From an uncultured Alphaproteobacteria bacterium (GTDB taxonomy: Bacteria > Pseudomonadota > Alphaproteobacteria > CAVTAV01), in contig CAWGFE010000002.1 of the NCBI GenBank assembly GCA_963821875.1, positions 3,014,021 to 3,078,020 of the forward strand: 64,000 bases of DNA, read 5' to 3'. The stretch's first letter is position 1, and the number at the start of each line of letters is the position of its first letter. Shown piece by piece: positions 43,138-63,997 of the stretch. The translations under genes were made by a program, and so were the position numbers. The notes beneath the pieces are model-generated. The model did no database searches. It was not told the DNA's origin and saw only the letters and a program-made list of their open reading frames with translations.

Positions 43138-43179
43138 GCGAGCCCGGCTTGGAATTTCTTAGGTGTAAGGGGGAACTCG

Positions 43180-44634: not shown

Positions 44635-44663
44635 GGTCTGTCATCAATTAGAGATTACAGTGA

Positions 44664-44719
44664 CAGTGCACTTAATTGACGAATGTCATCGACGCCAAGA
44701 TTAAATGCACTGTCACCGT
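44664..44719. repeat. inverted repeat TACAGTGACAGTGCACTTAAT ... ATTAAATGCACTGTCACCGTA
   Basis: Read in the sequence; the arms are ~21 bp with 2 mismatches. A third copy of the motif TGCACTGTCACCGT lies at 11206-11219. Confidence 0.6.
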
Positions 44720-44800
44720 AATCCCTTAGACAAGAATGTGTCGAGGCAATGCCGACCGCATAGTAGTAGCTTGGATAATCAGCTTTTTATGAGGACGTAG

Positions 44801-46432: not shown

Positions 46433-46688
46433 CCCTGTAGACCATCTCGACAGGCAGCACTGCTCTAGATGTTTGGTCCCGGCATTTGACGATGCGAGTT
46501 TAGGTTGAATCGTTCGGGTTCGTTTGTCCAGCATTGACGTGACCACCAACTTTCATCCGGTTGCGATTGGAGTCTTGGCGGCTTTGTTGCGCATGAGCGC
46601 GGACTGAGCAATGGCCTGCGCAGCGGAGCCCGTGGGGCGTAGCGAAGCAGGCCATGTTGTACGCGCTCGCCTGAGCCCAACAAATATT

Positions 46689-47711
46689 CTATTCGCTCGA
46701 CAAGAGAACTCGCGCCCTTTCAAGTGTTGTCGGCTGGGCCGCCACTGCTGAGCGGGCCGCCGCGCGAAGTGCGTCCCGTTGTTCTTCGTTCAGATACTCC
46801 ACTGGAGACTTGCCATCGACGCGCGCCAGAGCGAGCACGGGCAGTAACTTGGCGGCTCGGAACTCCAGATTATCGGCGGGTTCCCAGTCGATCCTGGCGA
46901 AGTAAGCCGACGCAAGCATATTGAAAGCGGTTGTGAGCAATCCTGCCGCACCTTGTACCACACGCGCTTTGATAACGAGGTGGTTGAGGCAAAAGGCAAG
47001 ATCGAAGGCTGGATCGCCGAACCAAGCGCATTCGGCGTCGAGCAACACCGGTCCTTCAGGGCCACGAAGAATGTTCTTGGGGCTCACGTCGCCATGAACG
47101 AGCACTTTGCGCGTGGCGGCCGTAGTGGCCGCGATGCCTTCGATCGTCGCAGCCAAGTCTGGATGGGCGCGAGCAGTCGTTCTTAAATAAGGTTCAATCC
47201 GCAGGGCCTCGAAACCGTCGTTCGTAGCAAAGCCTGCCGGCAGCGTGCAATTGCGCGCGGTCGCCGAATGGATTCGCCCCACCAACGCTCCTACATCGCC
47301 GGCAAAATCGGGATCTACCCGACCGGCCATCAGTTCCGACTTCCATAGTGGGTAGCGATCGGGGGCCAGCCATGCCATCGCAAACAGGCCGCGGGCGGGG
47401 TCATGCACAATCGGCTGCGGCATTGCCCCGGGCGCAATGGCCGAGACGACCTCCATGTAAGCCCATTCCATGGCGTTGCGCCCCACCGGAGCTGTCCAGT
47501 CCGAGGCCACCTTCAGCCGGGCGAGCGCCCGCTTCACACAGAAGGCGCCGGCTTGGGTCTTGACCCTCCAGATGTCGGACGACACGCCGCCGGCGAGCGG
47601 CACCCAGTCTCCCGTCTCGTCGGGCTCGGCCAGCCCGTAATCCCGCAGGAACTCGATGAGGTCTGGCTCGGGCGTGGTCACAGTGGGGCCAGGCCGGATG
47701 CGCCACTCCAA
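46689..47711 (-). CDS. phosphotransferase (APH/ChoK-like kinase) family protein
   Basis: Kinase catalytic loop LVHGDVSPKNIL and a DAECAWFGDPAFDLA block. 340 aa. Its 5' end overlaps the enolase 3' end by 34 nt. Confidence 0.7.
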   Translation of the reverse strand: MEWRIRPGPTVTTPEPDLIEFLRDYGLAEPDETGDWVPLAGGVSSDIWRVKTQAGAFCVKRALARLKVASDWTAPVGRNAMEWAYMEVVSAIAPGAMPQPIVHDPARGLFAMAWLAPDRYPLWKSELMAGRVDPDFAGDVGALVGRIHSATARNCTLPAGFATNDGFEALRIEPYLRTTARAHPDLAATIEGIAATTAATRKVLVHGDVSPKNILRGPEGPVLLDAECAWFGDPAFDLAFCLNHLVIKARVVQGAAGLLTTAFNMLASAYFARIDWEPADNLEFRAAKLLPVLALARVDGKSPVEYLNEEQRDALRAAARSAVAAQPTTLERARVLLSSE

Positions 47712-48958
47712 GGCAGGCCTGCCTCTTCGATGCGGAGGAGTTGGTTGTACTTCGCCTGTCGCTCCGAGTTGCGAACGGAGCCGATCTTGACCTGTCCGCC
47801 AGCGACGCCGACCGCCAGATCTGCGAGGAAATCATCCTCGGTTTCGCCAGATCGCGCCGAAATCACGGTTGCATAGCCCGCAGCCCGCGCCATCCGAATG
47901 GCTGCGAGGGCACCTGATAGTGTGCCATTCTGGTTGACCTTGATAAGTGCACTGTTGGCGATGCCGGTATCGATCGCCCGCTGGATACGGTCCGGTTGTG
48001 TCGCGAACAGATCGTCTCCAACGAGCTGGATCCGAGACAGGCGCCGCGTCATCTCAGGCCAGTGTCCCCAATCCTCCTCATCAAGTCCGTCCTCAATGGA
48101 GATGATGGGATATTTTTCGACCCAACTGGCCTGCATTTCAATCATCTCAGTGGCATTGTAGGTGCGGCCCTGTCGCCGAAACACGTATCCCCCCATTCCG
48201 TCAAACAGCGAGGAGGATGCTATGTCGAGAGCGATCGCCACGTCCTTGCCGGGTTCGAGCCCCGCCTTTTCGAATGCCTCGACCATCAGGTCCAATGCTT
48301 CCTCGGACGTCTCGAAGCCCGGGGAAAGCCCTCCTTCGTCGGCGAGCAACGTCGGCAGACCGCGCACGGCGCATAGTTTCGCGGCCTGGACGCGCACTCT
48401 GCAGATCCAATCAAGCGCCTCCGAATATGAGTTTGCCCCCACCGGAATGGCGAGAAAGTCCTGGACGTCCATTCCACGTCCAGCGTGAAGACCCCCCGAT
48501 AGAATGTTGACCATCGTCAGTGGCATGCTGGGCTCCGTGCCGGCAAGCTCGGCAAAACGCCGCCAGAGGGGTTGCCGCTGCGCGAACGCACTTGCACGCA
48601 CGACCGCCAAGCTGACCGATAGAACCGCATTACCTCCCAACCGGGCGAGATTCGCCGTACCATCCAGCTCCCGCATGGCCGCGTCGATCCCCTGCTGGTC
48701 CATTGAATCGCGACCGAGAAGCAGACGAGTGATCTCGCCCTTAACGTTGGCAATCGCGCTGGAAACGCCACGCCCTTCCCACGCCGTGCCACCGTCTCGC
48801 AACTCGACCGCCTCCGCCTTGCCCGTCGATGCACCCGATGGCGCCGACGCCCGCGCCGTAACGCCGTTGGCCAGTGTTACCTCGGTCTCAACGGTGGGCC
48901 GCCCGCGGCTGTCCAGGATCTGCCTGGCGTAAATCGCGGAAATCCTGGTCGTCATCAC
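47678..48958 (-). CDS. eno: enolase (phosphopyruvate hydratase) paralog
   Basis: Canonical enolase N-terminus ISAIYARQILDSRGRPTVE and other enolase blocks. 426 aa. Confidence 0.9.
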   Translation of the reverse strand: MMTTRISAIYARQILDSRGRPTVETEVTLANGVTARASAPSGASTGKAEAVELRDGGTAWEGRGVSSAIANVKGEITRLLLGRDSMDQQGIDAAMRELDGTANLARLGGNAVLSVSLAVVRASAFAQRQPLWRRFAELAGTEPSMPLTMVNILSGGLHAGRGMDVQDFLAIPVGANSYSEALDWICRVRVQAAKLCAVRGLPTLLADEGGLSPGFETSEEALDLMVEAFEKAGLEPGKDVAIALDIASSSLFDGMGGYVFRRQGRTYNATEMIEMQASWVEKYPIISIEDGLDEEDWGHWPEMTRRLSRIQLVGDDLFATQPDRIQRAIDTGIANSALIKVNQNGTLSGALAAIRMARAAGYATVISARSGETEDDFLADLAVGVAGGQVKIGSVRNSERQAKYNQLLRIEEAGLPWSGASGLAPL

Positions 48959-49602
48959 TACAGGCCTTCCGGATGATTGCGGGGATTTTGCGGGTATTCG
49001 CCGGCGAGCACGCGGACCACTTCCTCCGCTGACCGTCTGCGCAGTTCGGCAAGCGACGCATCGGAGGAAAAGGCCACATGCGGCGTGACGATGACATCGG
49101 GCCGCTCTACAAGTGCGCGCGGCGGAGTGGGCTCGCCCTCGATCACATCTACACCTGCTCCCGAGAGGCGACCGGCTTCCAGCCCGGCAATCAGTGCCTC
49201 ATTGTCAACGAGTGGCCCCCGGCTCACGTTAATGAGGAAGCAGCCCTCTTTGACGTGGGCCAACCGTTTAGCATCGAACAGATGGCGCGTCGCATCGGTC
49301 AGCGGCGCATGCAGGATTATAACGTCGCTGGCCGCCAGCATCTCGTCTAACGGCAACAAACAAGCGGGGCCGCCATCTCGCGCGGAGGGGGAATGCGCGA
49401 GCACCGTGCAGCCAAAAGCGGCAAGCTTGGCGACTGTGGCGCGCCCGATCCGACCGAGCCCTACGACGCCCACGGTCAGGTCGGAGACCCGCCGCAACCG
49501 CGCGGCGGCAGGATTCCAGCGGCCGGCCTTCACCTCCCGATCGAAGAACACGGTATGGACTTGGGTTTGCGACAGCATCGACGGAGGCCGCGACGTTACC
49601 AA
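48958..49602 (-). pseudogene. D-isomer-specific 2-hydroxyacid dehydrogenase, N-terminally truncated
   Basis: Only the NAD-binding/C-terminal part is present (GVVGLGRIGRA, catalytic RGPLVDNEAL, HVAFSS). An in-frame stop lies 5 codons upstream of the TTG 'start', and the MFS gene begins 88 bp away. Its stop forms an ATGA overlap with the enolase start. Confidence 0.55.
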
Positions 49603-49624
49603 CGCGACGACTTTTCACCAAACG

Positions 49625-49640
49625 TTGACAGCGCTGTCCA
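49625..49640. promoter_or_regulatory. LacI-type operator half-palindrome TTGACAGCGCTGTCCA (site 1) in the MFS promoter region
   Basis: Read in the sequence, 50 bp upstream of the MFS start. One mismatch to the perfect palindrome seen at site 2. Confidence 0.6.
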
Positions 49641-49689
49641 TTCCCGTCGAGAATAGCAGGCTTGAACGGTTTGAATCGAGGGGAATGGC

Positions 49690-50991
49690 ATGGCGACAGC
49701 AGCGCCCGCCGGCAGCAAGATAGAGAGACCAGGCGACAAGGAGGTGGCCTTCAACCGGCCCCTGTTCATTCTGTCCCTTGGCCTCTTCTTCCTTTGGGGC
49801 TTCGCCACCGTTCTGATCGATATTCTGGTACCGAAGCTAAAAGGCCTGTTCGATCTCAGTTTTGCCGAGGTGATGCTGACGCAGTTCGCCTTCTTCCTCG
49901 GTTATCTCGTCTTCTCGTTACCAGCGGGAAATATCGTTGCGCGCATCGGTTACATGCGCGGAATCGTACTCGGCCTCACGATCATGGCTGCCGGTTGCCT
50001 GATGTTCGCGCCAGCGGCACGCATGGGGCTGTTCGCCGGCTTTCTGTTCGCTCTCTTCATCATGGCTGCCGGCATCACGACGCTGCAGGTGGCCGCCAAC
50101 GCTGTTATCGCCATTATCGGTCCGGCCGAAACGGGCTCCGCGCGCCTGACATTGGCCCAAGCCTTCAACAGCTTCGGCACATTCATCGGCCCGCTCATCG
50201 GTGCGAGCCTGATCCTTCAGAACGACGTCAATCTACCGGCGGACATCGCAACCCTGAGCGCCGCCAAGCTAAGCGCATTGCGCATCAGCGAGGCGTCCGT
50301 CGTTCAGGTTCCGTTTCTCGGAATCGCAGCCCTCCTCGTCGTGCTCATTGTCGTCTTCTGGGTAAAGCGCGATCTTCTGCCACACGCGGCACCGGATGCG
50401 GCGTCCCATGGCGGCATCGGTTTTGCTCTGCTTCGCCGGCCTCGCATTCTATTCGGGGTCATCTCGATCTTCGCCTATGTCGGGGCAGAAGTCTCGATCG
50501 GATCGATGATGGCCAATTATCTCATGCAACCCGACGTGCTGTCGCTCACGGCCCTTCGTGCGGGACAACTCGTCAGCATCTATTGGGGCGGGGCCATGGT
50601 CGGACAATTCATCGGCGCCGCAGTCCTGCATCGAATCCGCCCCGGCCGTGTACTCTCGGTCTGCGCAAGCGGCGCGATCATCCTGGCGGCGCTCTCGAGC
50701 TTCTCTCATGGTTACATGGCGGGCGGGACGATCCTTGCCGTCGGCCTCATGAATTCGATCATGTTCCCTACCATCTTTGCCCTGTCGCTCGAAGGGACCG
50801 GAGAAGACGCTCCAAGGGCATCCGCCTTACTCTGCATGGGCATCGTCGGTGGCGCCATTCTGCCCGTCGTCACAGGCTCGGTCGCGGATCACCTGTCGCT
50901 CGCCACCGCCCTGATCGTCCCGATCATCGCCTATGGCTGGATCATCTTTTTTGGACAATTCACCGTGCGCGCCTCGCGGCTGCGCCCGTGA
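49690..50991 (+). CDS. MFS sugar transporter (glucose/galactose/fucose permease GluP/FucP family)
   Basis: 433 aa, 12 TM helices, with an N-terminus typical of FucP/GluP-type symporters. Confidence 0.85.
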   Translation: MATAAPAGSKIERPGDKEVAFNRPLFILSLGLFFLWGFATVLIDILVPKLKGLFDLSFAEVMLTQFAFFLGYLVFSLPAGNIVARIGYMRGIVLGLTIMAAGCLMFAPAARMGLFAGFLFALFIMAAGITTLQVAANAVIAIIGPAETGSARLTLAQAFNSFGTFIGPLIGASLILQNDVNLPADIATLSAAKLSALRISEASVVQVPFLGIAALLVVLIVVFWVKRDLLPHAAPDAASHGGIGFALLRRPRILFGVISIFAYVGAEVSIGSMMANYLMQPDVLSLTALRAGQLVSIYWGGAMVGQFIGAAVLHRIRPGRVLSVCASGAIILAALSSFSHGYMAGGTILAVGLMNSIMFPTIFALSLEGTGEDAPRASALLCMGIVGGAILPVVTGSVADHLSLATALIVPIIAYGWIIFFGQFTVRASRLRP

Positions 50992-51009
50992 CTCTACGGA
51001 CAAGAGGAT

Positions 51010-53094
51010 ATGCGGCGTATGCCATCTTTCTCCCGTTCTTCGTGCGTCGCGTTATTCGTTGCGCTTTCTTCGGCCGGGGTCCTGGCGTCTTCGGCCGCAC
51101 CAGCGCTTTCGAAGACCACGAAGCAACCGAATCTGGGCACCAGAACGAAATCCACAATCGACGTGGACGGGTTACGTTTTCGAGACCTGAACGGCGACGG
51201 CAAACTGGAGCCATACGAGGACTGGCGCCTCTCGCCGGAGGCACGCGCCAAGGATCTGACGGCCCGCATGACCCTCGCCGAAAAGATCGGCACGATGATG
51301 CATTCGACATTGCCGGGACCGCTTGGGGCCCTAGGCCGTTCCGCCAAAGGCTATGATCTAACCCGAACACGGAAGCTGATCGACGGCAAGCATGTAACAA
51401 GCTTCATCACACGCCTGACGCTACCGCCCGCCCAAATGTCGGAGCAAAGCAATGCCGTGCAGGCGCTGGCCGAAAAGACGCGTCTCGGTATCCCGGTCAC
51501 AATCAGCACCGATCCGCGCAGCCACTTTCAATATGTGCTGGGCGCGAACGAGACCGGCGGAGAATTCCCGCAATGGCCCGAAACCCTTGGATTTGCAGCC
51601 CTGAGAGATCCAGCCGTCGTTCGCCGCTTCGCCGATATCGCGCGGCAGGAATATCGCGCAGTCGGCATTCAGGAGGCTCTCTCGTCCCAGGCGGATTTGG
51701 CGACTGAGCCCCGATGGCCGCGGCAAACCGGTACCTTCGGAAGCGACGCAGCGCTCACCAGCCGCATGGTCGGCGCCTATGTCGCCGGTTTTCAGGGTGG
51801 CGATCACGGCCTGCAACGCGACGGCGTCATGACGGTCGTCAAACACTGGGTCGGCTATGGGGCCTCCGTGAAGGGCCTTGACGGCCATAACTATTACGGC
51901 CAATTCGCCCAATTCGGCGGTGGTAAGCTGCAGCGTCATATCGACGCCTTCAAGGGCGCATTCGACGCCAGGACGAGCGGTGTCATGCCGACCTACGCGA
52001 TCCTCCGCGACGCCGAAGTCAATGGATGTCCGCTGGAGCAGGTTGGAGCAGGCTTCAATAAGCAACTCCTGGCTGGGCTCTTGCGGCATACCTATGGCTT
52101 TAAGGGAATCGTCCTGTCGGACTGGGCGATTACCCGCAACTGCGACCAGGCCTGCCGTCATCCGACCGCCGATCAGCCCCAGAAGCCCAAGGATATCGCT
52201 ATGCCTTGGGGCGTGGAATCGCTGACACCCCAGCAGCGCTACATCAAGGGGGTGCGGGCCGGTGTGGATCAGTTTGGTGGAACCGATGACGTTCAGCCTT
52301 TGATCGACGCCGTTAAGAGCGGAGCGTTGAGCGAGGATCGGATCGACCAGTCCGTTCGTCGCGTCTTGATCCCAAAATTCGAAATGGGGCTGTTTGAAGA
52401 TCCCTATGTCGATCCATCCCGCGCTCAAGATATCGTGGGGGCACCCAAATTCGTCGCCGAAGCCGCCCCGACACAGCGCGTGGCGCAGGTGCTTCTGCAA
52501 AACAGCAACAACCTTCTGCCGCTCGTCCGCGCGCTCAAGAAGGTCTATCTATTCGGCATGAATTCAAAGGCGGCTGAAGCGGCGGGCCTAACCATCGTCG
52601 ACGACCCCGCCAAAGCCGATTTCGCCATCATCCGCGCGGAGGCTCCGTCGGAAATGCTTCACCCCGACTATTTCTTCGGCAGCCGACAGAAGGAAGGGAG
52701 GCTCGATTTTCATAAATGTGATCCGGCCTATGACGCGTTAAAGGCGGCGAGCGCGCATGTTCCAACCGTCATGGCCATCTTTCTCGATCGGCCGGCCATC
52801 CTCACCAATATTCGCAACAAAGCGACGGCGATCCTTGCCAATTTCGGAGCGAGCGACGCCGCCGTGCTCGACGTCATTCTCGGCGAGGCGAAGGCACGAG
52901 GGAAACCGCAAACTCTGAAATCATTTTGGTCCCCCTTTGCACGTCGACCGTGGCACCCGTTTTCTGCAGAAGCGCAATGTAAATTGACAGCGCTGTCAAT
53001 TGCCGGTGGTCAGATTAGCGTTTTGGGGGACAAGTGGATTCGCGCACAACCAGCGCGTAATCGAGAGGGATGCCGGCCGACAACTTGCCTGTAA
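51010..53094 (+). CDS. secreted glycoside hydrolase family 3 beta-glucosidase (BglX-like); 3' end uncertain
   Basis: Signal peptide and GH3 blocks (VVKHWVGYG, GIVLSDW). The last ~50 codons look non-coding, run through the operator palindrome and overlap convergent lacI by 80 bp. Confidence 0.75.
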   Translation: MRRMPSFSRSSCVALFVALSSAGVLASSAAPALSKTTKQPNLGTRTKSTIDVDGLRFRDLNGDGKLEPYEDWRLSPEARAKDLTARMTLAEKIGTMMHSTLPGPLGALGRSAKGYDLTRTRKLIDGKHVTSFITRLTLPPAQMSEQSNAVQALAEKTRLGIPVTISTDPRSHFQYVLGANETGGEFPQWPETLGFAALRDPAVVRRFADIARQEYRAVGIQEALSSQADLATEPRWPRQTGTFGSDAALTSRMVGAYVAGFQGGDHGLQRDGVMTVVKHWVGYGASVKGLDGHNYYGQFAQFGGGKLQRHIDAFKGAFDARTSGVMPTYAILRDAEVNGCPLEQVGAGFNKQLLAGLLRHTYGFKGIVLSDWAITRNCDQACRHPTADQPQKPKDIAMPWGVESLTPQQRYIKGVRAGVDQFGGTDDVQPLIDAVKSGALSEDRIDQSVRRVLIPKFEMGLFEDPYVDPSRAQDIVGAPKFVAEAAPTQRVAQVLLQNSNNLLPLVRALKKVYLFGMNSKAAEAAGLTIVDDPAKADFAIIRAEAPSEMLHPDYFFGSRQKEGRLDFHKCDPAYDALKAASAHVPTVMAIFLDRPAILTNIRNKATAILANFGASDAAVLDVILGEAKARGKPQTLKSFWSPFARRPWHPFSAEAQCKLTALSIAGGQISVLGDKWIRAQPARNREGCRPTTCL
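52982..53001. promoter_or_regulatory. 20-bp perfect palindrome AATTGACAGCGCTGTCAATT (site 2)
   Basis: Read in the sequence. Located between/overlapping the GH3 3' end and the lacI 3' end. Confidence 0.6.
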
Positions 53095-54007
53095 TACCGG
53101 CTTCCGCGGCAGCCACTCCGAAATTGGTTAGCGGTTGCTGGATCGTGGTCAATGAGGGCCAGCAGGTCCTGGTTGCAGGTATATCGTCGAAGCCTGAGAT
53201 GGAAAGGTCATCGGGCAGCTTGAGACCAAGTTCATGCGCCACCGCCATGACGCCGAGCGCCATGTCGTCATTTGCAGCGAATATTGCCGTCGGCGGTTGT
53301 TCGAGTTGGAGCAGTTGACGCCCCGCCTCCCGACCCGACGTGAAGGAGAAATATCCCTGAACGACATATTGCGGATCCACATTGAGTCCCGCGTCCGTCA
53401 TCGCCTGTGTATATCCGTCGTAGCGTGATGCCGCAGAGAGGTGATCAGGATGCGGCCGGATCATGCCAATGTGCCGATGGCCAATATCGATAAGATGCCT
53501 CGTCATCTCATAGGCAGGGCTTCGCTCATCCATCGCGATATTGATGCCGGGCCCTGCTTCTGCGCCTGCTATGCGAATGATCGGCGTATTCAAGCCACCG
53601 ACAACCGTCAGAAACTCGACATTATCGGACAGTGGTGGTGTCACGAAGACAGCATCGGGCGCCAAGGTATGAACAAGCCGGCGCATGACATCTCCGATCA
53701 GACCGTCGTCGAGAGAAATGGGTTCGACAACAAGATGGTATCCGCCTTCCCGGCACCGAATGGCGGCCCCCGACTGGATACCCGTGATATAGGCCGGGCT
53801 TGGATTGTTGTAGGGAAACGCGATCAGATAAGATCGGCTACCGGCCATTCGGCGCGCAGCCTGGTTTGGACGGTAGTCCAGCTCCTTTACGGCCGCCAGG
53901 ACGCGCTCACGCAAATTGTCACGTACATGTGGCTCGTTGTTCAGGACACGCGATACGGTCTTCATGGACACGCGAGCGCGCATCGCAACATCATAGATCG
54001 TTGCCAA
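53015..54007 (-). CDS. LacI-family transcriptional regulator
   Basis: N-terminal HTH (ATIYDVAMRARVSMKTVSRVLNN) and a periplasmic-binding-protein-like effector domain. 330 aa. Confidence 0.85.
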   Translation of the reverse strand: MATIYDVAMRARVSMKTVSRVLNNEPHVRDNLRERVLAAVKELDYRPNQAARRMAGSRSYLIAFPYNNPSPAYITGIQSGAAIRCREGGYHLVVEPISLDDGLIGDVMRRLVHTLAPDAVFVTPPLSDNVEFLTVVGGLNTPIIRIAGAEAGPGINIAMDERSPAYEMTRHLIDIGHRHIGMIRPHPDHLSAASRYDGYTQAMTDAGLNVDPQYVVQGYFSFTSGREAGRQLLQLEQPPTAIFAANDDMALGVMAVAHELGLKLPDDLSISGFDDIPATRTCWPSLTTIQQPLTNFGVAAAEAGITGKLSAGIPLDYALVVRESTCPPKR

Positions 54008-54229
54008 AGGTCGACAGTCCTTCTTTTCCTGCTATGCCGCCGCCGCGACGGACCAGACCGCATTAATTTGTTGCAACATAAGCCTCCCCTCGTGAGACGA
54101 CCAACCATGCCCGTAGTCGGCGCGATACACCAAATAATTTCTGCGGACCGGGATCGAAACGATCACATCACGATGTGCGGAGCGCACGGACGGCGTGTAA
54201 GCGCAAGAGTGATCCTATCTCGTCGCTTA

Positions 54230-54856
54230 CTACTTTTGCATGCTCATCGCTCTTCGGGCATTGCCCTCAATCTTTTCCCAAACTCCGCCATCGATCATCG
54301 CCCTCGGCGCAACCCACGACCCACCCACACAGGCGACATTCGGAAGGGCGAGATAGTCCGGCGCGCGATCGGGCCCGATACCGCCCGTGGGGCAAAACAC
54401 GCAATCGGGCAGCGGGCCATGGAGAGATTTAAGATATTTGATCCCGCCGGCCTGTTCGGCAGGGAAAAATTTCATGGCCGCAAACCCTGCTTCGAAAACG
54501 GTCATCGCCTCACTTGCCGTAGCAGTACCGGGCAAGGCCGCTATGCCCGCTTCTTTCAAAGCAGCGAGCAATTGAGGTGGTGAGCCGGGTGTCACGAGAA
54601 AAGCGGCGCCCGCTCCCATCGACTTCTCGATGTCGGCCCGCGTGCGAACTGTTCCCATGCCGATGATAAGATCGGACGCTGCATCCTGCATCGCCTTCAC
54701 GGCGTCGAGCGCGCAGTCGGTCCGAAGTGTCAATTCGACGACACTCAACCCGCCGGCGGCGAGCGCCCGGGCCAAGGGCGCCGCGCATCCCAGACGAGCC
54801 ACCTCCAGCACCGGAATGACAGACGCTTTTTCCAGAATTGCATCAATATTCATCAA
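54230..54856 (-). CDS. eda: KDPG/KHG aldolase
   Basis: Eda family blocks (VIPVLEV, GAAFLVTPG, KFFPA). 208 aa. Confidence 0.85.
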   Translation of the reverse strand: MMNIDAILEKASVIPVLEVARLGCAAPLARALAAGGLSVVELTLRTDCALDAVKAMQDAASDLIIGMGTVRTRADIEKSMGAGAAFLVTPGSPPQLLAALKEAGIAALPGTATASEAMTVFEAGFAAMKFFPAEQAGGIKYLKSLHGPLPDCVFCPTGGIGPDRAPDYLALPNVACVGGSWVAPRAMIDGGVWEKIEGNARRAMSMQK

Positions 54857-55815
54857 CCCAAACGCTCCATCGCGGCCGCCGCGCCATAGAGAGCCACACT
54901 TTCATCCACGATGAGGCGAACTGGGACCGCGGCCATATAATCCTTCATGCGTCCCTTATCAAGGAATCGGTCAATAAACGGACCTTCTAGAAGCATCTCT
55001 CTGATTTTCGGCAGAATGCCGCCGCCGAGGACGACGCCACCCCGTGCGCCCGTAGCAAGCACCGCATCCCCAGCGACGCGCCCCAAGACTGCACTGAACA
55101 TATTCACGGTCCTCAACGCAATGCGATCCGTTCCATCCATTGCGGCGGCCGTAATCTCTTCAGCCTGAAGCGTCAACGGCGGCGCTCCCTCGATCTGACA
55201 AAAGGCGCGGTGGATATTTACGAGGCCAGGCCCGGATAGAAAACGCTCGGCGGACACGCGGGGATGTGCTCTGGCAATGAAACTCATGACCTCGGTCTCT
55301 TCTGTCGTTTGCGGCGCAAATGCGACATGCCCACCTTCCGTCGCAACGACCCTGTTCCCCGTTTGAGTTGGTACGATCAAGGCCTGACCGAGACCAGTGC
55401 CGGGCCCGATGATAAGTTGCACCGCCAGAGCATCCCGCCGCGCTCGTTTTACGGTGACGAAAGCGTCGTCATGGAGATAGGCCACGCCGCTCGCTGCCGC
55501 ATAGAAGTCGTTGACGAGCATCAGTTCCTCGAGGGCCAACGCCTTCTGAAACTCGTCGCCGCGAAGTGACCAGTGGGAATTTGTCAAGGTAACCTGCGCC
55601 TGACCGTTATGCACCGGCCCGGCGAGCGCCATGCAGGCGCGTTTGGGGTGCGCCTGCACGGATTCTAAATAGGCGTGGGCCGCGTCGCGTACGGTCTCGA
55701 AGTCCTCCGTTTGAAGTCTCCGCGCGTCATGAAGCGTGATCCCGCTGCTCACCGCTTCAGCGATCGCAAACCGGACATTAGTGCCGCCGATATCGGCAAC
55801 AAGTATCAGATCAAT
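54853..55815 (-). CDS. glk: glucokinase
   Basis: [16 protein letters not shown]-binding N-terminus. The likely TTG start overlaps the edd stop (TTGATTGA). The track ATG at 55971 would overlap edd by 160 nt. Confidence 0.75.
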
Positions 55816-57646
55816 CAAGGTGTTCTTCCAACTTAAACGTCGTCGCACCACTCTCGGCGCCCGAAACAAGGTCTCTGAATCCGGCGAAAAGCTCTCTGCC
55901 GCTTCCCCAGCGATCCTCAGCCAGATCTCGGGCGGTCGTCTCGCGGAGCGCCAACTCGTCAGCCTCGACACGGACCTCCAGAATTCCTCGTTTGGCGTCG
56001 AGGCGGATCAAGTCACCGTCACGGATCTTGCCGATGGCGCCTCCGTTAGTGGCTTCCGGCGAGACGTGAATGGCCGCCGGCACCTTGCCGCTGGCGCCGG
56101 ACATGCGCCCATCGGTAACGAGCGCGACCTTGAATCCCCGGTCCTGGAGCACACCGAGATACGGTGTCAGCTTATGAAGTTCGGGCATTCCGTTGGCCTT
56201 CGCGCCCTGATACGGCACTACGGCGATGAAATCCCGGTCGAGTTCGCCCGCCTTGAACCGGTCGAGGAGATCCTGCTGGCCGTCAAATATGACGGCGGGC
56301 GCTTCGACGATGCGCTTCTCGGGCTTCACGGCGGAGACCTTTATCACTGCGCGGCCGATATTGCCCGTGAGCAGCACGAGCCCGCCGGTCGGAGAGACCG
56401 GGTCATCCGTCGCGCGTAATATTTTCTCGTCTCTTGGGCGATCGGGCGGCGCACGCCACGCAAGCCGACCGTCGGCCAGATACGGCTCAACCGCATAATG
56501 GCCGAGGCCTGGCCCCATGACGGTCATGACATCTCCGTGCAGCAGGCCGGCATCGAGCAATTCGCGGATAACAAATCCGAGGCCGCCGGCGTCCCGGAAG
56601 CGGTTCACATCGGCCGACCCGTTGGGATAGATGCGCGCCAGCAACGGCGTTACCTTCGAGAGCGCGTCGAAGTCGTCCCAGTCGATGATAACGCCGACGG
56701 CCCGCGCCATCGCGACAAGATGGATGGTGTGGTTGGTCGACCCGCCCGTCGCGAGAAGGCCAATGACGGCATTCGCGATAGTTCTTTCATCAATCACGTC
56801 GCAGAACGGAATGTAATCGTCGCCAAGAGCCGTCGTGGCGGCGACGCGCCGTGTTGTTTCCCGGACAAAGGCATCTCGCAACGGCGTGTTCGGATTGACG
56901 AAGGCCGAACCGGGAAGATGCAGTCCCATAACCTCCATCATCATCTGGTTGGAATTCGCGGTGCCGTAGAAGGTGCAGGTCCCCGGGGAATGGTAGCTGC
57001 GGCTTTCGGCGGCAAGAAGCGCGTCCCGCCCGATCTTGCCTTCGGCGTATAGTTGGCGAATACGCGCCTTCTCTTCGTTGGGAAGGCCGGACGCCATCGG
57101 CCCGGCCGGCAGAAACATGATCGGCAGGTGGCCGAATCGCGCCGCGCCGATAAAAAGGCCGGGCACGATCTTGTCGCACACCCCAAGCATGAGGGCGGCA
57201 TCAAACACGTTGTGCGAAAGCGAGACGGCGGTCGCCAAAGCAATGACGTCACGAGAAAAGAGCGACAGGTCCATGCCGGCGCGGCCCTGGGTAACACCAT
57301 CGCACATGGCTGGAACACCGCCGGCAATTTGTGCTGTCGCGCCGATCTCCGAGAGCGTTTCCTTAATGATGTCCGGATAGGCGCCCAGCGGTTGATGTGC
57401 CGAGAGCATGTCGTTGTAGGCCGTGACGATTCCGACATTCGGACCGTCGCCTTGCGAAAGTGACTTCTTGTCATGCGCAGGACAGGCCGCTACGGCATGA
57501 GCGAGATTGCCGCAAGAGACATGCGAGCGATTCGGACCGTCCGACGCGGCAGAACGCATTTGTCTAACATACGCCTCGCGCGTCGCCCGGCTGCGTTTCC
57601 GCATCCGGTCCGTGACGCGATCCAGTGCTTCATTCAGTTTGACCAC
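55811..57646 (-). CDS. edd: phosphogluconate dehydratase
   Basis: IlvD/EDD family blocks ([21 protein letters not shown]). 611 aa. Confidence 0.9.
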
Positions 57647-57656
57647 AACACCCTCC

Positions 57657-58382
57657 CTACGGCGCCCAACAGACCCAGAGGTCCGGTCGCGCCGTCAGGA
57701 TGGCGCGCACCGGCATGTCGTTAACGGCGCCGTCATCCAAAGCCTTTTCGAATATGGCGCGCTTTTCGTTGCCCGAGATCATGACCGCTATCTCTTTCGC
57801 CCCTCTGATCGCGCCCAAGGTAAACGTCATCCTGTCGAGATATTCGCCCGTGACATCGCTTGGTTTCGCGGTGATTGCGGCCAGGCGCGAACCGCTTTCC
57901 GCCAGAGCCCCCTTAAGCCCGGCGCAATCTGGAAACCATGACGCCGTATGGCCGTCCACCCCCATGCCGAGAACAACAACGTCCAACGGGAAACGAACGG
58001 CATCGAGGCGACGCTCGCCTTCTTCAAGCCCTGCGGCCGGTGATGCGGCGCCGGTCCACAGACCAATAAACACGGCATCCGCAGCACGGTTTTGAATCAG
58101 GGTGGATCTGACCAGCGTCTCGTTCGAACCGACGGTCCCGGGCGGAACCCAGCGCTCGTCGACTGGAACGACGCGCACATTCGACCAATCCAGCGACCGC
58201 GTCGAAAGTTCCCTGTACAGATCGGTGGGCGTCGACCCGCCCGAAGCCGCAAGGCTGGCCGTCCCATGCTCGGCGAGGGATCGAGCCAATTGCGCCTCAA
58301 TGACGTCGGCCAATCGCCCGGCCATTGCCGTACGGGACGCAAAGGAAATCATGTTCGGTTCAGATGCCATTGAACCACTCAT
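57657..58382 (-). CDS. pgl: 6-phosphogluconolactonase
   Basis: Pgl family ([23 protein letters not shown]). The start may be at 58352. Confidence 0.8.
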
Positions 58383-59847
58383 GCCCCTCTCGATCCAGCA
58401 TCATGGCAGACTGAACCGGCCCGTCCGTTCCCGCCGCATATTGATGGACTGGCGTGTTGTCCCGGTGCCAGGAATCCAGAATTCCATCGACCCATTTCCA
58501 GGCGGCCTCGACCTCGTCACGGCGCATGAACAACGCAAGATCGCCTCTGACCACCGCTATCAGCAGCCGCTCATACGCATCTGGATAGCGGGCCTCGAAG
58601 GTTTCAGCATAGGACAAATTGAGCGGTACATACCGAAGCCTCATACCGCCCGGTCCGGGATCCTTGGTCACCAGCAGCAATTGCACGCCCTCATCGGGCT
58701 GCAGCCGGATCACCATACGTGTCGGCGGCAAGTCCTCGCCTTCGTTCTGTACCAGCGCGTGAGCGATATCCTTGAACTGGATGATAATTTCCGAATAACG
58801 TCCCGACATTCGCTTGCCGGTCCTCAAGTAAAACGGCACACCTTTCCAGCGCCAGTTATCAATATTGGCCCTGACCGCGACGAAGGTTTCCGCCTTGCTC
58901 TGCTGGCCGAGTTCTTCCACATAGCTCGGCGCGACTTGGCCATCGACCGCGCCTTTGCCGTATTGGCCGCGAACGGTCGTTTGCCGGACATTGTCTCGCG
59001 TGATCGGGCGCAGGGCCCGCAGGACCTTGATCTTCTCGTCGCGGACCGTGTCCGGATTGAGATCGAAGGGAGGCTCCATGGCGACCAGGCAAAGCAGCTG
59101 CAAGAGATGATTCTGCACCATGTCGCGCAAGGCGCCGGCCCCGTCATAATAGCCCGCACGGCTGCCGGCCCCGATCAATTCCGCCACCGTAATCTCGACA
59201 TGATCGATAGCGTTCGCGTTCCATACCGGCTCGAAGATTGAATTCATGAATTTGAGGACTATCAGGTTCTGGACGGTCTCCTTGCCGAGATAGTGATCGA
59301 TCCGGAAGATCGCATCTTCCTCGAAGACCCCTCCCACCCCCGCGTTGATCGCCTGTGCGCTGGCCAGATCCGAGCCGATCGGCTTTTCGAGGACGACCCG
59401 GGCGTCGTCACTCAATCCTGCCGCCGATAAGTTCCGACAGACATCGCCGTAAAAGTCCGGCGTCAAAGCGAAATAGAAGATCCGTTGTTTGCGCTCCCCG
59501 TTTCCCAGCTTGTCTTGAAGTCCGGTCCAAGAGGATCCAGAACTGACCGCGTCGAGGGATTCATAGCTCAGATGACGGACGAAAGCTGTCCACTCGTCAT
59601 CGTCGATCGTCTCCGCAGGGTAGAATTTCCGAAAGCTTTCGAGCGCAAGTTCCCGAAAACGCTCGTCATCCATGTCCGTTCGCGAAACACCGATGATCCG
59701 CGAATTCTCGGGGATCTGTCCGTCACGCCAGCGATGGAAAAGCGACGGGATCAATTTACGCAATGAAAGATCGCCGGCCGCGCCGAACACGACTAAGTCG
59801 AAAGGGGTAACCGGTATGAATTGAGGCGCTGGAACAGCATCCATCAT
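58360..59847 (-). CDS. zwf: glucose-6-phosphate dehydrogenase
   Basis: NADP motif FGAAGDLSLRKL and a RIDHYLGKE active site. The start is chosen at MMDAVPAP; the track ORF extends to 59994. Confidence 0.9.
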   Translation of the reverse strand: MMDAVPAPQFIPVTPFDLVVFGAAGDLSLRKLIPSLFHRWRDGQIPENSRIIGVSRTDMDDERFRELALESFRKFYPAETIDDDEWTAFVRHLSYESLDAVSSGSSWTGLQDKLGNGERKQRIFYFALTPDFYGDVCRNLSAAGLSDDARVVLEKPIGSDLASAQAINAGVGGVFEEDAIFRIDHYLGKETVQNLIVLKFMNSIFEPVWNANAIDHVEITVAELIGAGSRAGYYDGAGALRDMVQNHLLQLLCLVAMEPPFDLNPDTVRDEKIKVLRALRPITRDNVRQTTVRGQYGKGAVDGQVAPSYVEELGQQSKAETFVAVRANIDNWRWKGVPFYLRTGKRMSGRYSEIIIQFKDIAHALVQNEGEDLPPTRMVIRLQPDEGVQLLLVTKDPGPGGMRLRYVPLNLSYAETFEARYPDAYERLLIAVVRGDLALFMRRDEVEAAWKWVDGILDSWHRDNTPVHQYAAGTDGPVQSAMMLDREGHEWFNGI

Positions 59848-60148
59848 AACTCGTTCGCCTTCTCTCTTTTGATGTTGTGCCGCCACCCGAACCAATCGCC
59901 TTGACGAACTTAAGTGTCTATCCGCCGGATGAAACCGGCTCTCGCTACACAGCTCCGAAAAATCAAACCAAGAGCGTCTCGCCACCGTTCTCACATTACC
60001 GTATTTCCCCTCTGCTTATCCGCGATCGACTCACATACCGACGGATAAAGCTACGTTCGATCATGATCTCCGAACAAAACTCTGCCCGGCGGAACCTGAC
60101 CTTCCGCCATCTTAGAGAGCCCGGAGAATACTTCTTAATGCTCTAAAA

Positions 60149-60164
60149 AGACAGCGCTGTCAAA
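60149..60164. promoter_or_regulatory. LacI-type operator AGACAGCGCTGTCAAA (site 3) upstream of the zwf operon
   Basis: Read in the sequence, ~300 bp upstream of the zwf start. The core GACAGCGCTGTC is shared with sites 1 and 2. Confidence 0.55.
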
Positions 60165-60253
60165 TAACAGGAAGCGACGTGTCCCCCGTCAGCACCTATG
60201 GCCAAGATTGGGTAGTAGATTAGTGGAGCATCGGTCTCGTCTGGGGGTTGATG

Positions 60254-60700
60254 TTAGGCGGCGAGCTTGCGGTGCTGCAAGCGCCGATGTTCGATGGTCT
60301 GTCGCTTGATCCTTTCGCGTTGTTTGATGATGGTCTCGGCCCTGCCGAAGTAGGCGTCGGCGGGCGTCACATTGCCCAGGCTCTCATGGTAGCGCTGGTG
60401 GTTGTAGTGTTCGACGAACGCTTCGATCTGGACCTCGAGGTCGCCGGGCAGGAAGTAGTTCTCCAGCAGGATGCGGTTCTTGAGGGTCTGGTGCCAGCGC
60501 TCGATCTTGCCCTGCGTCTGGGGATGGAACGGAGCACCGCGCACATGGCTCTTATCGCATGGTCTGAATCTTGCTTTCCAGTTGAGTCGAAGCGTGCGAT
60601 CGGATGGGCCGCCTTTCAAGCCAACCGAGCAGCAAGCGGCTCGGCGACCACCTTTCGGATTTTGGGCCGGGTCCTGCGCCGCGGCTTTCGTGGATATCAG
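60254..60700 (-). mobile_element. IS481-like (rve/DDE) transposase C-terminal remnant
   Basis: HPQTQGKIERWHQTLKNR...YNHQRYHESLGNVTPADAYFGR integrase-core C-terminus. There is no N-terminal HTH or catalytic DD region; it abuts the carboxylesterase 3' end. Confidence 0.6.
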
Positions 60701-62262
60701 TTCGGGGTAACCGCAGGCAGTGTGACCACGAACTCAAAGCGTTTCTTATCGAGGTCTTCTCGCAAGACGGTTCGATCCTGATCGAATTCCAACACCGGCG
60801 CACTGCTCTTGGTCAGGCGTGGCCAGTCAGAAGTGCGTTCGCCGGGGTGACCAGTCTTGGCAAACCTTACCCAGCGTGACTGAACCTCATCGGTTATCTC
60901 ACGCATGTCTGATGTTTCGATGGGCTCCACGGTCTTCATGGTGCCAAACACGGCATACAGCTCGTCCGTATGCACCGGGCCAGGAACCTTGCCACGCTCC
61001 GAAGGGCGAATGTAGTTGTAGAGATAGACATAAGTCGGCATGCCATGCGCGGCCGCGGCTCGTGCGACCTCTCGCGTTGGCTCTGCCGTCAGGATGTCGG
61101 TCATTAGCTCGCCTTCGATGAAGTGAGTCTGGTGGGTTCCGTATCCGTCATACAGCGTCAGCACCTTTGGCCATTGCGATGCCAATTTCTTGGCGAGGCC
61201 TTTCGTGAAACCCTCGAAACTGCCGGCTTCGTAGCTGTTGGTGCCGATCAGAAGAGGGACGCGAGCAACATCTCCTTTCTCGAAAGCTTCCATCGGGGTT
61301 TCGCGAATGATCTTGCCGTCGATCATGGGTCCGCTGCCGCCTGATCCGAGCGTCGCATTTCCCAGGATCGTCTTTGCCGGAACATCGCGAAGCACCGATG
61401 CATCGTCGCTTTGAACGCCCCATTTTTCCGCCTCGGCTTTGCCGTCCATCTCCGCCTTGTCGATGGGTTTCATGGAGAATCGACGGACGCCGGACTCAAT
61501 AATTGCCTTGGCGAATAGGCCTTTGGCCAAGGGCGAAGACATCAGGAACGTCACAGAAGTGCCGCCGGAGGATTCGCCGAACAGGGTGATGTTGTCCGGG
61601 TCGCCGCCGAATGACGCGATGTTCCGCCGGACCCACTTCAAGGCCGCGATCTGGTCGAGGACCTGGTAATTCCCGAGAGGTCCGTCCGGGTTCTCTTTCG
61701 TGAGTGCCGGATGCGCAAAGAAGCCGAACTTTCCGAGCCTGTAGTTGAAGGTCACCAGGATGATGCCGCGTTGCGCTAGGCTCGACCCGTCATACTTGCT
61801 TTCGGCTCCCGACCCGACACTAAATCCGCCACCGTGAATGAAAACCATCACGGGCAAATCATGAGCTTTCGGCGATGCGCGAACCCATGCATTCAAATAG
61901 AGGCAATCTTCGCTGACGGGCTGGGCGCCGGGACGTCCCGCCGGATTTTGCATGCAGTCGTGGCCAAAGTGATTGGCACGCAGTGGTGCGGTATGAGGCG
62001 ACGGCGGTTGAGGTGCCCGCCATCGAAGGGCGCCGACGGGCGGCGCGGCGTAGGGGATCCCGAGAAACGAGGTTATTCCGTTCTGCGTGACGCCTTCGAC
62101 CATGCCTTCGGTGGTCTGCACGTTCGCATCCCCAGCCGATGCCGCCGGCGCCGGAAGGAGCCCGAAGGTGAGGCCCAGTACGCCAAGGGCTTTGAATAGT
62201 CGGCCAAGAATTCGTGGTGAGAGCGTGCGCCCGATAGTTTGCGTTCGATCATGCAGTTCCAT
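60697..62262 (-). CDS. secreted carboxylesterase type B
   Basis: EDCLYLNAW, HGGGF, nucleophile GESSGG, and a signal peptide from MELHDRTQTIGR...; the track ORF extends to 62382. Confidence 0.85.
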   Translation of the reverse strand: MELHDRTQTIGRTLSPRILGRLFKALGVLGLTFGLLPAPAASAGDANVQTTEGMVEGVTQNGITSFLGIPYAAPPVGALRWRAPQPPSPHTAPLRANHFGHDCMQNPAGRPGAQPVSEDCLYLNAWVRASPKAHDLPVMVFIHGGGFSVGSGAESKYDGSSLAQRGIILVTFNYRLGKFGFFAHPALTKENPDGPLGNYQVLDQIAALKWVRRNIASFGGDPDNITLFGESSGGTSVTFLMSSPLAKGLFAKAIIESGVRRFSMKPIDKAEMDGKAEAEKWGVQSDDASVLRDVPAKTILGNATLGSGGSGPMIDGKIIRETPMEAFEKGDVARVPLLIGTNSYEAGSFEGFTKGLAKKLASQWPKVLTLYDGYGTHQTHFIEGELMTDILTAEPTREVARAAAAHGMPTYVYLYNYIRPSERGKVPGPVHTDELYAVFGTMKTVEPIETSDMREITDEVQSRWVRFAKTGHPGERTSDWPRLTKSSAPVLEFDQDRTVLREDLDKKRFEFVVTLPAVTPN

Positions 62263-62293
62263 CGTAAGACCTCGCTTGCCGGATCGGGCTCTA

Positions 62294-63997
62294 TCAGCCC
62301 CGCAGCAGGGAAAAGACTTTGCCGACCGCAGAATCCGGAATCTTTTCGAGCGCCAGCCGCTCGTCCTTATGCGGGTCGTCAATCGACCGATCGGTTCCGG
62401 AGATGACCATCGTTGACCGGTCCTCGAGCGTATACGGCTTCCACTTCGCTAAACCCGACCCATTTGGCGTGCCCGCGCGGGCGAAGGAGAGCCAGCGCTC
62501 GCTCATCCTGTCGGCGAGCGCCTGACCGTCTGGCGGATCTCCGATCCGACGCTTTCCCAGTTCGACGTTGTCCCAGACGAAAGGCAGATCCACCCCATGC
62601 GGGCTTAAGTAATTGCCGCCGAATATGGGTGGGCGCCACTCCCATCGGTACAAGTACAACGGCGCTCTGCCGAGCGCGACTTTCCGCTGCGCCAACTGCA
62701 CGGTCCGCTTCGTCGTCCAAATTCCGGTCGCGATGAAGATCAGCAATTGCGCAGGAGTGGCATTCGGATGACCGTGCCGATAAGCCTTCAGAAGTGGCTT
62801 CGCCATGCTTCCGAGCGCTTTCTCCACGCGAGCGACGGCGTCCTGTTCATCGATCCCGAACACGGCGTCGGACGCGATGACGCTGAGTTCGGAATCGGTG
62901 CCGCCCACAATCATGGGCACATCGGCGGCTGTTGGCGGCGCGTCCGGCGTCCAAAGCTGGCGCGGAACCGATCTGCCGTCGAATGTCGGCGCCGCGCCCG
63001 ACCCGGCTTTCAGGATCGCATCGACCGGCATGGCCAGTATCTGCCGCGCCGTGGCGCGCGACAGCCCCAGCTTCGCAAGGACTTTGTCGGTCGCCGTGAC
63101 GGCATCGTCTCGGGTGCGGAGCGTCAGCTGCGCGCCACTTTGGATGATCGCCTTGTGAAACAGTCCCTTTGCGGCCGGCATGGCAAGGAGCTGAGAGACT
63201 TCCGAGCCACCGGACGACCACCCAAAGATCGTGACGTTTCCGGGATCGCCGCCGAAATTAGCGACATTGTCCCGAACCCACTGGAGCGAGGCGATGATAT
63301 CGAGAACGCCAGCATTGCCGGAATCCAGGTAATCTTCTCCAAGCGCCTCGCCCAGATACAGGAAACCGAAAAAATTTAGGCGGTGGTTGATCGCGATGAT
63401 GACGGCATCGCCCCGACGGGCAAGGTGCGTACCGTCGAACAATGGCGCGACACCGGCGCCGCTCTGCCACCCTCCGCCATGGAGGAACACCATGACCGGG
63501 CGCTTCGCCCCGTCATTGACGCCCGGGGTAAAGAGATTGAGAAAAAGGCAATCTTCGGACATAGGCGGATGACTTGGCGTCAGGTCGGTCGACCAGCTGT
63601 TAGGCGGATCGAATGTCGGCACCACCTGAGGCGCAATGTTGCCGCCGAGGGCGATAACCGTTTCCATGACGCCGTTCCAGGGCTCGGGCGTCGCCGGCGG
63701 TCTGAATCTATTGAGGCCGCCGGTCGGGGCGCCGTAGCGCAAGCCTCGCAAGGTGTGAATGCCATTCGAGACATAACCCCTCACTTTGCCGTTGGATGTT
63801 TCCACCACGGGGCCAAGGCGAGGGGCTCCGTGGTCGGATGAGCCCGGTTTGTCCGACCGGCTTGGCGAAGAGGCCGCAACCGCTCGGTTAACGCAAGCGC
63901 CTTTTCCCATCGTCGAGAGGGTTGCCGCCGCTGCAGTAACCATCAAGCCGCGCCGGCTGATTTTGTGCGCGTCGTCCTCGAGCTTGGCCCGTGTCAT
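62294..63997 (-). CDS. Tat-exported carboxylesterase type B
   Basis: An RRGLMVTAAAATL twin-arginine signal, EDCLFLNLFTP, HGGGW and nucleophile GWSSGG. 567 aa. Confidence 0.85.
   Translation of the reverse strand: MTRAKLEDDAHKISRRGLMVTAAAATLSTMGKGACVNRAVAASSPSRSDKPGSSDHGAPRLGPVVETSNGKVRGYVSNGIHTLRGLRYGAPTGGLNRFRPPATPEPWNGVMETVIALGGNIAPQVVPTFDPPNSWSTDLTPSHPPMSEDCLFLNLFTPGVNDGAKRPVMVFLHGGGWQSGAGVAPLFDGTHLARRGDAVIIAINHRLNFFGFLYLGEALGEDYLDSGNAGVLDIIASLQWVRDNVANFGGDPGNVTIFGWSSGGSEVSQLLAMPAAKGLFHKAIIQSGAQLTLRTRDDAVTATDKVLAKLGLSRATARQILAMPVDAILKAGSGAAPTFDGRSVPRQLWTPDAPPTAADVPMIVGGTDSELSVIASDAVFGIDEQDAVARVEKALGSMAKPLLKAYRHGHPNATPAQLLIFIATGIWTTKRTVQLAQRKVALGRAPLYLYRWEWRPPIFGGNYLSPHGVDLPFVWDNVELGKRRIGDPPDGQALADRMSERWLSFARAGTPNGSGLAKWKPYTLEDRSTMVISGTDRSIDDPHKDERLALEKIPDSAVGKVFSLLRG

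Follow-up and report, generated by a model that had tools for sequence, protein, structure and literature searches.

A predicted GluR-type LacI-family regulon at a glucose-uptake and Entner–Doudoroff gene module of an uncultured alphaproteobacterium

A sugar gene module with three copies of one palindrome

The DNA analysed here is a stretch of 64 kilobases (kb), called the window, from an uncultured alphaproteobacterium (assembly GCA_963821875.1, contig CAWGFE010000002.1, positions 3,014,021–3,078,020 of the forward strand). It contains a module of sugar genes that surrounds a gene for a LacI-family regulator and carries three palindromic candidate operators, called O1, O2 and O3 (Table 1). 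Gene annotation was based on Pfam and NCBIfam (TIGR) profile models. On the minus strand, O3 is followed by a leader of 300 nucleotides (nt), the zwf-pgl-edd-glk-eda genes, a gap of 222 base pairs (bp), the regulator gene (lacI) and O2, and a unit composed of O1, the MFS transporter gene gluP and a GH3 gene converges from the other side. A tblastn search of the 64 kb yields a single LacI-family gene, at 53015–54007, as an earlier note made from this sequence had proposed. The exact zwf product of 495 amino acids (aa) is recorded in the protein collection, and its ATG is preceded by the ribosome-binding site GAGAGAAGG. The MFS protein, which the earlier note had taken for a beta-glucoside importer, instead passes the curated cut-off of the GluP glucose/galactose model TIGR01272. 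By eye, the N-terminus of the GH3 protein resembles a secretion signal, which fits a route in which beta-glucosides are hydrolysed in the periplasm and glucose is then imported.

Table 1. Candidate operators, genes and flanking features of the module (window coordinates).
Feature	Position	Strand	Remarks
2-Hydroxyacid dehydrogenase fragment, 5′-truncated	48958–49602	−	NAD-binding domain only; left flank, outside the regulon
Candidate operator O1	49623–49642		Core TGACAGCGCTGTCC at 49626–49639; 48 bp upstream of MFS ATG
Sigma-70-like promoter match TTGACA-18-GAGAAT	49625–49654	+	Consensus scan, 10/12; −35 hexamer is the left half-site of O1
GluP-type glucose/galactose MFS transporter (gluP)	49690–50991	+	TIGR01272 gluP 256.5 bits (cut-off 202.55); Pfam MFS_1
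GH3 beta-glucosidase, truncated 3′ end	51010–53094	+	Pfam GH3 N-terminal domain and 30 positions of the C-terminal domain
Candidate operator O2	52982–53001		Perfect 20-bp palindrome; 13 nt past lacI stop codon
LacI-family regulator, GluR-like, 330 aa (lacI)	53015–54007	−	Pfam LacI HTH and Peripla_BP_3/1
KDPG aldolase (eda)	54230–54856	−	Pfam Aldolase; TIGR01182
Glucokinase (glk)	54853–55818	−	Pfam Glucokinase; TIGR00749; start from 321-aa gene call in L084
6-Phosphogluconate dehydratase (edd)	55811–57646	−	TIGR01196, 984 bits
6-Phosphogluconolactonase (pgl)	57657–58382	−	TIGR01198
Glucose-6-phosphate dehydrogenase (zwf), 495 aa	58360–59847	−	TIGR00871; ATG at 59847
zwf leader/upstream region, long	59848–60145	−	Between O3 and start codon
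Candidate operator O3	60146–60165		Core AGACAGCGCTGTCA at 60149–60162; minus strand reads TTGACAGCGCTGTCT, toward zwf
Transposase fragment (rve_3)	60254–60619	−	Pfam rve_3, E = 4.5e-16; borders module, outside the regulon

The three palindromes are variants of one sequence. The 20-mer AATTGACAGCGCTGTCAATT is matched without mismatch at O2 and with three mismatches each at O1 and O3, and 100 dinucleotide-preserving shuffles of the window gave a mean of 0 matches. All three sites have the same 12-bp core, GACAGCGCTGTC, and the 14-mer TGACAGCGCTGTCA is matched perfectly by O2 and with one mismatch by both O1 and O3. The arrangement TGACAG-CG-CTGTCA occurs three times inside 10.5 kb around the regulator gene, and an even, CG-centred palindrome of this kind has the symmetry typical of LacI-family operators. 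An independent metagenome assembly carries a 608-kb contig (L084) that is 99.94% identical over window positions 44001–60990 and holds all three sites, and thus the layout is not an assembly artefact. The three copies described by the earlier note are therefore real. A fourth operator, elsewhere in the window or in the gap between eda and lacI, was considered and rejected: the only extra match to the relaxed pattern TGACANCGNTGTCA at up to two mismatches lies at position 40023 and is at chance level.

The operator accompanies regulator homologues in other genomes

We compared 80 genome loci with relatives of the regulator and the contigs of its closest homologues; 83 loci, amounting to 1.48 Mb, were counted. 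The family pattern, at one mismatch or fewer, matches 117 sites in these loci versus 0–4 in shuffles, and the operator is present together with regulator homologues in most loci (more than 60). Phylogenetic footprinting, which the earlier note had suggested, shows zwf to be preceded by a perfect copy of the 14-mer, at a distance of no more than 500 bp, in 19 of the 21 loci in which zwf is linked to the regulator. These 19 loci span Caulobacter, Asticcacaulis, Hellea, Algimonas, Litorimonas, Robiginitomaculum and one gammaproteobacterial metagenome-assembled genome (MAG). In a twentieth zwf-linked locus (L015), a 16-mer with two mismatches abuts the estimated start of zwf. The consensus of 76 perfect sites is (T/A)TGACA(G/A)CG(C/T)TGTCA(A/T). 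Because bases beyond this consensus are not conserved, the outer AA and TT of the palindrome as the earlier note gave it are incidental, and the operator is effectively 14–16 bp long.

Several gene arrangements recur around the operator (O). Hellea, Algimonas, Litorimonas and Robiginitomaculum have lacI-O-zwf-pgl-edd-glk; Asticcacaulis has O-zwf...eda-lacI-O-GH3; Caulobacter has O-zwf-pgl-edd-glk-lacI-O-(GH3-like), with TGACAACGTTGTCA as the zwf site; and in Cellvibrionaceae and Lysobacteraceae the operator lies between divergent MFS and lacI genes. The operator tracks regulator homologues through the alpha-, beta- and gammaproteobacteria, where it fronts sugar genes. A recognition helix, VS(M/I)KTVSRVLN, is common to the window protein, GluR, BglR3 and the Hellea-type proteins. 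The idea that the TTGACA half-site always points to the regulated gene is borne out by O1, O3 and the Hellea-type loci but fails in Asticcacaulis, and it was rejected as a general rule.

An unbiased scan of metagenome contigs for the exact 16-mer found at least 120 loci. Among those listed, 49 have a homologue of GH3, LacI, glk, zwf or eda, nearly always within a few hundred bp, and several others adjoin genes for GH16, GH20, TonB-dependent receptors or OprB porins. A minority adjoin rpoB or SurA and look like chance matches, which are expected because the database is very large. These neighbourhoods indicate that the motif is context-specific. The abundance irrespective of context that the earlier note had named as evidence against a regulon is not seen among these loci.

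Caulobacter GluR is the best BLASTP match among named regulators

The 330-aa regulator consists of a LacI-type helix-turn-helix domain (PF00356, residues 3–48, E = 1.4e-19) and a C-terminal effector domain like that of periplasmic binding proteins (PF13377 and PF00532). It was compared with named regulators whose sequences were taken from the supplement of PMC4052901. In BLASTP alignments, the best match is GluR (CC2053), with 48% identity, ahead of BglR3 (44%), BglR2 (39%), BglR1 (37%) and GapR/CceR (25%); the sphingomonad BglR (Saro_1609) is 39% identical.

GluR of Caulobacter is a predicted LacI-family regulator whose gene lies directly downstream of zwf-pgl-edd-glk and whose motif is a 20-bp palindrome, a RegPrecise prediction (Ravcheev et al. 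2014, PMC4052901). Its predicted regulon also takes in pykA, gnl-gfo, ppdK and sucABCD. Glucose was proposed as its signal, a site directly before gluR was reported for three Caulobacter genomes, and no GluR orthologue was found outside Caulobacter in that 2014 analysis (PMC4052901). The window regulator shares with GluR a gene position directly 3′ of the zwf-pgl-edd-glk series, a TGACA/TGTCA operator upstream of zwf and the recognition helix. Indeed, the order zwf-pgl-edd-glk-eda-lacI in the window is the same as in four of the compared loci (L008 and L011–L013) but for the added eda, which lies inside the operon here, unlike in the Caulobacter GluR operon. The two systems also differ in the central bases of the operator (GCGC in the window, ACGT in Caulobacter zwf sites) and in the host, which is Parvularculaceae-like here, GluR having been described from Caulobacter only.

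Other LacI-family regulators of these pathways share some of the same features. The paralogues BglR1–3 are predicted to control beta-glucoside genes in Caulobacter (PMC4052901). BglR3 (CC2316) and the sphingomonad BglR (Saro_1609) are predicted in RegPrecise to regulate beta-glucosidase and TonB-dependent receptor genes in response to a beta-glucoside or glucose, and, as in BglR regulons, O1 fronts a unit of transporter and GH3 genes; the GH3 protein and the nearest relatives of the regulator are sphingomonad-like. Unlike the window module, the BglR3 and Saro_1609 regulons are not reported to include zwf. Orthology of the window regulator to CC2316 or Saro_1609 was rejected, with identities (44% and 39%) below that to GluR and a separate branch in the tree.

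Regulators of zwf and edd from the LacI family have also been described as PckR in Rhizobiales and GapR in Rhodobacterales (PMC4052901), and GapR/CceR was shown experimentally to repress Entner–Doudoroff genes, with 6-phosphogluconate as effector (PMC4323418). CceR/GapR of Rhodobacter sphaeroides (RSP_1663) thus provides an alphaproteobacterial LacI-family repressor of the kind proposed for the window, and its DNA binding is inhibited by 6-phosphogluconate. Unlike the window regulator, however, it uses a different 20-bp motif, is encoded apart from its targets and also activates TCA-cycle and ATPase genes; at 25% identity, orthology was rejected. PckR is a predicted repressor of zwf-pgl-edd, eda and glk, as is proposed here, but it is non-orthologous and dual, also activating gluconeogenic genes, and it has a different motif and an unlinked gene. 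HexR of gamma- and betaproteobacteria, which controls zwf and the Entner–Doudoroff pathway through a pathway intermediate, belongs to another protein family (RpiR) and uses another operator, and no HexR-type regulator gene adjoins the window module. The earlier note had thought it new that zwf should be placed under a LacI-family repressor. That view does not hold, as such control was already predicted for GluR and PckR and demonstrated for CceR, and with these precedents it is not unusual.

O1 and O3 as predicted operators of the two sugar units

O1 coincides with a promoter-like sequence before gluP. Promoter-consensus matches in this region are not above shuffles in number, and the TTGACA-18-GAGAAT sequence counts as a consensus match only. 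Contigs of other strains (L085 and L086) retain O1, and their homology to the window upstream of gluP reaches only to about position 49550, roughly 75 bp beyond O1, with a 40-bp indel and without the dehydrogenase fragment. This limit places the promoter within about 140 bp of the gluP ATG, with O1 in it. MFS homologues elsewhere are likewise preceded by the operator (L004, L016, L028, L042, L050, L053 and L065). Occlusion of the promoter at O1 would be the natural reading of repression at this site.

O3 lies at the edge of a conserved block. In a contig from another strain (L088), identity of 97–98% extends from about 15–20 bp upstream of O3 through the leader into zwf, and O3 is kept. Upstream of about position 60183 the two sequences are unrelated: L088 has an AlpA-like gene, a GntR regulator and a TonB-dependent receptor (Plug), and the window has a transposase fragment. 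Conservation that starts at O3 suggests that the transcription unit begins there. At both O1 and O3, the shortness of the shared DNA ahead of the site would place the promoter at the operator or 3′ of it. O3 could then act either by overlapping a promoter or as a roadblock. An Rfam scan of the whole window gave no family match, and hence no known riboswitch or small RNA accounts for the 300-nt leader of zwf. The rve_3 transposase fragment lies about 90 bp upstream of O3, on the flank of the zwf module that differs between strains.

O2 and the truncated GH3 gene

The GH3 gene is incomplete. Its product is 61% identical to the GH3 protein of locus L003, and the alignment ends at residue 632 (nucleotide position about 52905), at the residues ARGK. 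The remaining tail, 52906–53094, consists of 62 unrelated read-through codons that cross O2 and overlap the 3′ end of lacI by 80 nt. None of the frames of the window contains the tail of the L003 protein (LPFELPRSMEAVEAQ...DPLFPYGAGIVPE). Among 120 listed GH3 homologues, mostly from Sphingomonadales, query coverage is 85–93% except in the query's own 100%-identical cluster, and 11 aligned homologues have in common a tail of the form G[KR]LP.ELP.SM.AV..Q.P...DDS..PL...G.G, which the window GH3 is without. By this comparison, the gene has lost its conserved last 35 or so codons.

Since the GH3 frame reads through O2 and lacI ends 13 nt before it, O2 lies downstream of both of its neighbours. The earlier note was right that a perfect 20-mer marks the GH3/lacI boundary; its position between convergent 3′ ends does not fit a promoter operator. 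A different layout is found in the closest distinct relative (L087, whose LacI protein is 88% identical). There, lacI is followed on the same strand by 16 nt, then TTGACAGAGCTGTCAA, then CAGACAGCGCTGTCAA and then a TonB-dependent receptor gene, and nucleotide homology with the window spans the stretch between the 3′ end of lacI and the far edge of O2, where it ends. In L003, the GH3 orthologue is co-directional with lacI and the operator lies between them. On the most economical view, O2 is probably a relic, the first operator of a lost unit formerly located 3′ of lacI. The rest of the window was searched for an orthologue of the L087 receptor; the best matches, at just 38% and 31% identity, were rejected, and hence the gene has not just moved to another place in the 64 kb.

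Proposed regulation and competing explanations

From these comparisons, we consider it likely that a GluR/BglR-type repressor keeps gluP-GH3 (through O1) and zwf-pgl-edd-glk-eda, possibly with lacI (through O3), silent for as long as no sugar signal is present. The 330-aa regulator would bind the 14–16-bp palindrome as a dimer. At O1, which would overlap the −35 hexamer and spacer of the gluP-GH3 promoter, the bound repressor would exclude RNA polymerase; at O3, on the 5′ edge of the conserved unit upstream of zwf, it would repress zwf-pgl-edd-glk-eda. As the 222 bp between eda and lacI are free of operators, lacI would either be co-transcribed with these genes or have its own unregulated promoter, and in the former case repression at O3 would extend to lacI and amount to autoregulation. 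Once the repressor has been released by a sugar signal, periplasmic hydrolysis of beta-glucosides, glucose uptake, phosphorylation and Entner–Doudoroff cleavage would be induced together. The unit once 3′ of lacI, which is the TonB-dependent receptor gene in L087, may have been replaced as gluP-GH3 joined convergently, clipping GH3. That the protein binds and represses, what effector it senses, where the promoters lie and that O2 is a relic are all predictions from sequence. The single LacI-type repressor that the earlier note assigned to the sites very probably recognises them, given the co-occurrence of operator and homologues and the 19 of 21 zwf loci, and it would couple the O1 and O3 units; what does not stand of that proposal, besides its novelty and the beta-glucoside importer, is O2 as a promoter operator.

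Several observations weigh against this proposal. O3 is centred 308 bp ahead of the zwf ATG, versus about 10–150 bp in relatives, and the −35-like TTGACA hexamer that faces zwf on the minus strand of O3 is paired with a poor candidate −10 (CATTAA). The eda-lacI gap (54008–54229) has no operator at up to 2–3 mismatches, unlike the region before Caulobacter gluR. In a rough neighbour-joining tree, the regulator groups with L081–L083 and sphingomonad homologues, beside rather than within the Caulobacter GluR clade, and the zwf loci of the nearest edd relatives (L089–L092, from Hyphococcus, Amphiplicatus and two MAGs) are without the window operator. A search of the available literature for experimental work on GluR or CC2053 found none. 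Finally, O2 is a perfect palindrome, which could mean that it is still under selection.

This last point bears on two other views of O2. One holds that all three sites are working promoter operators of a new kind of regulon, with O2 controlling GH3, lacI or both. The common core, the superior match of O2 and the location of the regulator gene between the sites speak for it. However, O2 is downstream of both converging neighbours, no promoter-like site was found there and the kind of regulon is already known, which makes this account improbable. The other view is that O2 has been kept or co-opted, either as a repressor-dependent roadblock or insulator between convergent transcripts or as an auxiliary or decoy site that tunes the amount of free repressor. 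O2 still forms a perfect 20-bp palindrome even though the second operator and −10 region of L087 are gone. Moreover, no intrinsic terminator was found between the convergent gluP-GH3 and zwf...lacI units, and the O2 hairpin itself is weak (−7 to −8 kcal/mol, without a T-run). Yet the sole other copies of the O2 junction are 99.9% identical and so carry no evolutionary evidence for selection, and with repressor bound both convergent units would already be off, leaving a roadblock little to add. A length of 330 aa is typical of dimeric LacI-family proteins, and spacings of 3.4–7.2 kb are beyond usual looping distances. We regard a retained function of this kind as unlikely. If true, it would mean an operator that works at gene ends and not at a promoter.

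It is also conceivable that the palindromes are structural repeats, such as REP-like elements or terminator hairpins, or targets of another transcription factor. They can form hairpins, and O3 on the minus strand is followed by TTTTT. But the hairpins are weak, at just −2.4 to −8.2 kcal/mol, and are without adjacent T-runs except for the weak case at O3, on which grounds a terminator or REP-hairpin reading was rejected; there is also no Rfam match in the window. The even symmetry about CG, and the way the motif tracks regulator homologues in three proteobacterial classes in front of sugar genes, make this explanation very improbable compared with operators of a GluR/BglR-type repressor.

With repression through O1 and O3 as the preferred reading, the predicted pairing of operator and GluR/BglR regulator is extended beyond Caulobacter to a Parvularculaceae-like genome and to Hellea, Algimonas, Litorimonas, Robiginitomaculum and Asticcacaulis, and the operator also accompanies regulator homologues in beta- and gammaproteobacterial lineages. 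Nothing is overturned, as LacI-family control of zwf had been predicted (GluR, PckR) and demonstrated (CceR); what is new is modest, namely a wider taxonomic spread of the operator–zwf link together with an orphan operator. The results should help regulon annotation and the choice of a tractable system for work on GluR.

Mosaic origin of the module and further occurrences of the operator

The module illustrates how units headed by operators can be reshuffled, leaving behind an orphan operator and truncated genes. Its edd gene is closest (75–79%) to those of Parvularculaceae (Hyphococcus, Marinicaulis and Amphiplicatus), and the nearest relatives of GH3 and the regulator are sphingomonad-like. 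These mixed affinities suggest lateral acquisition of the regulator and GH3 parts. Synteny breakpoints lie about 20–80 bp from each of the three operators, as expected if only those rearrangements survive that keep promoter and operator on their genes. On the left flank, residue 1 of the dehydrogenase fragment aligns to about position 100–120 of full-length family models. The idea that GH3 became convergent by a simple inversion was rejected, because the missing 3′ end of GH3 and the missing 5′ end of the dehydrogenase gene are not at the opposite junctions (20–110 bp available), which points to a more complex history.

Other features of the surroundings were noted. The 5′-truncated dehydrogenase gene is followed on the minus strand by genes for a full enolase (47678–48958) and an APH-family phosphotransferase (46689–47711), the stop and start codons overlapping. 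Three paralogous carboxylesterase (COesterase) genes flank the module, at 44801–46432 (plus strand), 60697–62382 (minus) and 62294–63997 (minus), and gene calls in L084 place two Abhydrolase_10 genes and an amidase gene just upstream (window positions about 39990–44634), making this a hydrolase-rich region. The pgl call in L084 (17968–18384) is 138 aa long versus 241 aa for the window reading frame, and a frameshift in pgl may be among the few differences between the two sequences.

A second type of LacI-linked zwf locus was encountered in a Parvularculaceae-like MAG (L090, GCA_021776245.1), in which MFS-zwf-pgl-edd-glk-eda is divergent from an operon of alpha-amylase, LacI and TonB-receptor genes. 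The palindrome in its intergenic region (6377–6551) is a different one (GCAATCGATTGC; TGCGCAATCGATTGCCA), and its LacI protein is only 26% identical to the window regulator. The locus appears to be a separate instance of zwf under a LacI-type regulator.

In four marine metagenome contigs (L097, L117, L165 and L196), the exact 16-mer TTGACAGCGCTGTCAA occurs 40–90 bp upstream of an open reading frame, and no regulator homologue was found nearby in the fetched DNA. The product is GH20 chitobiase-like by Pfam in L097, and the other three are similar by eye only. The same type of operator may therefore serve an N-acetylglucosamine or chitin regulon in some gammaproteobacteria.

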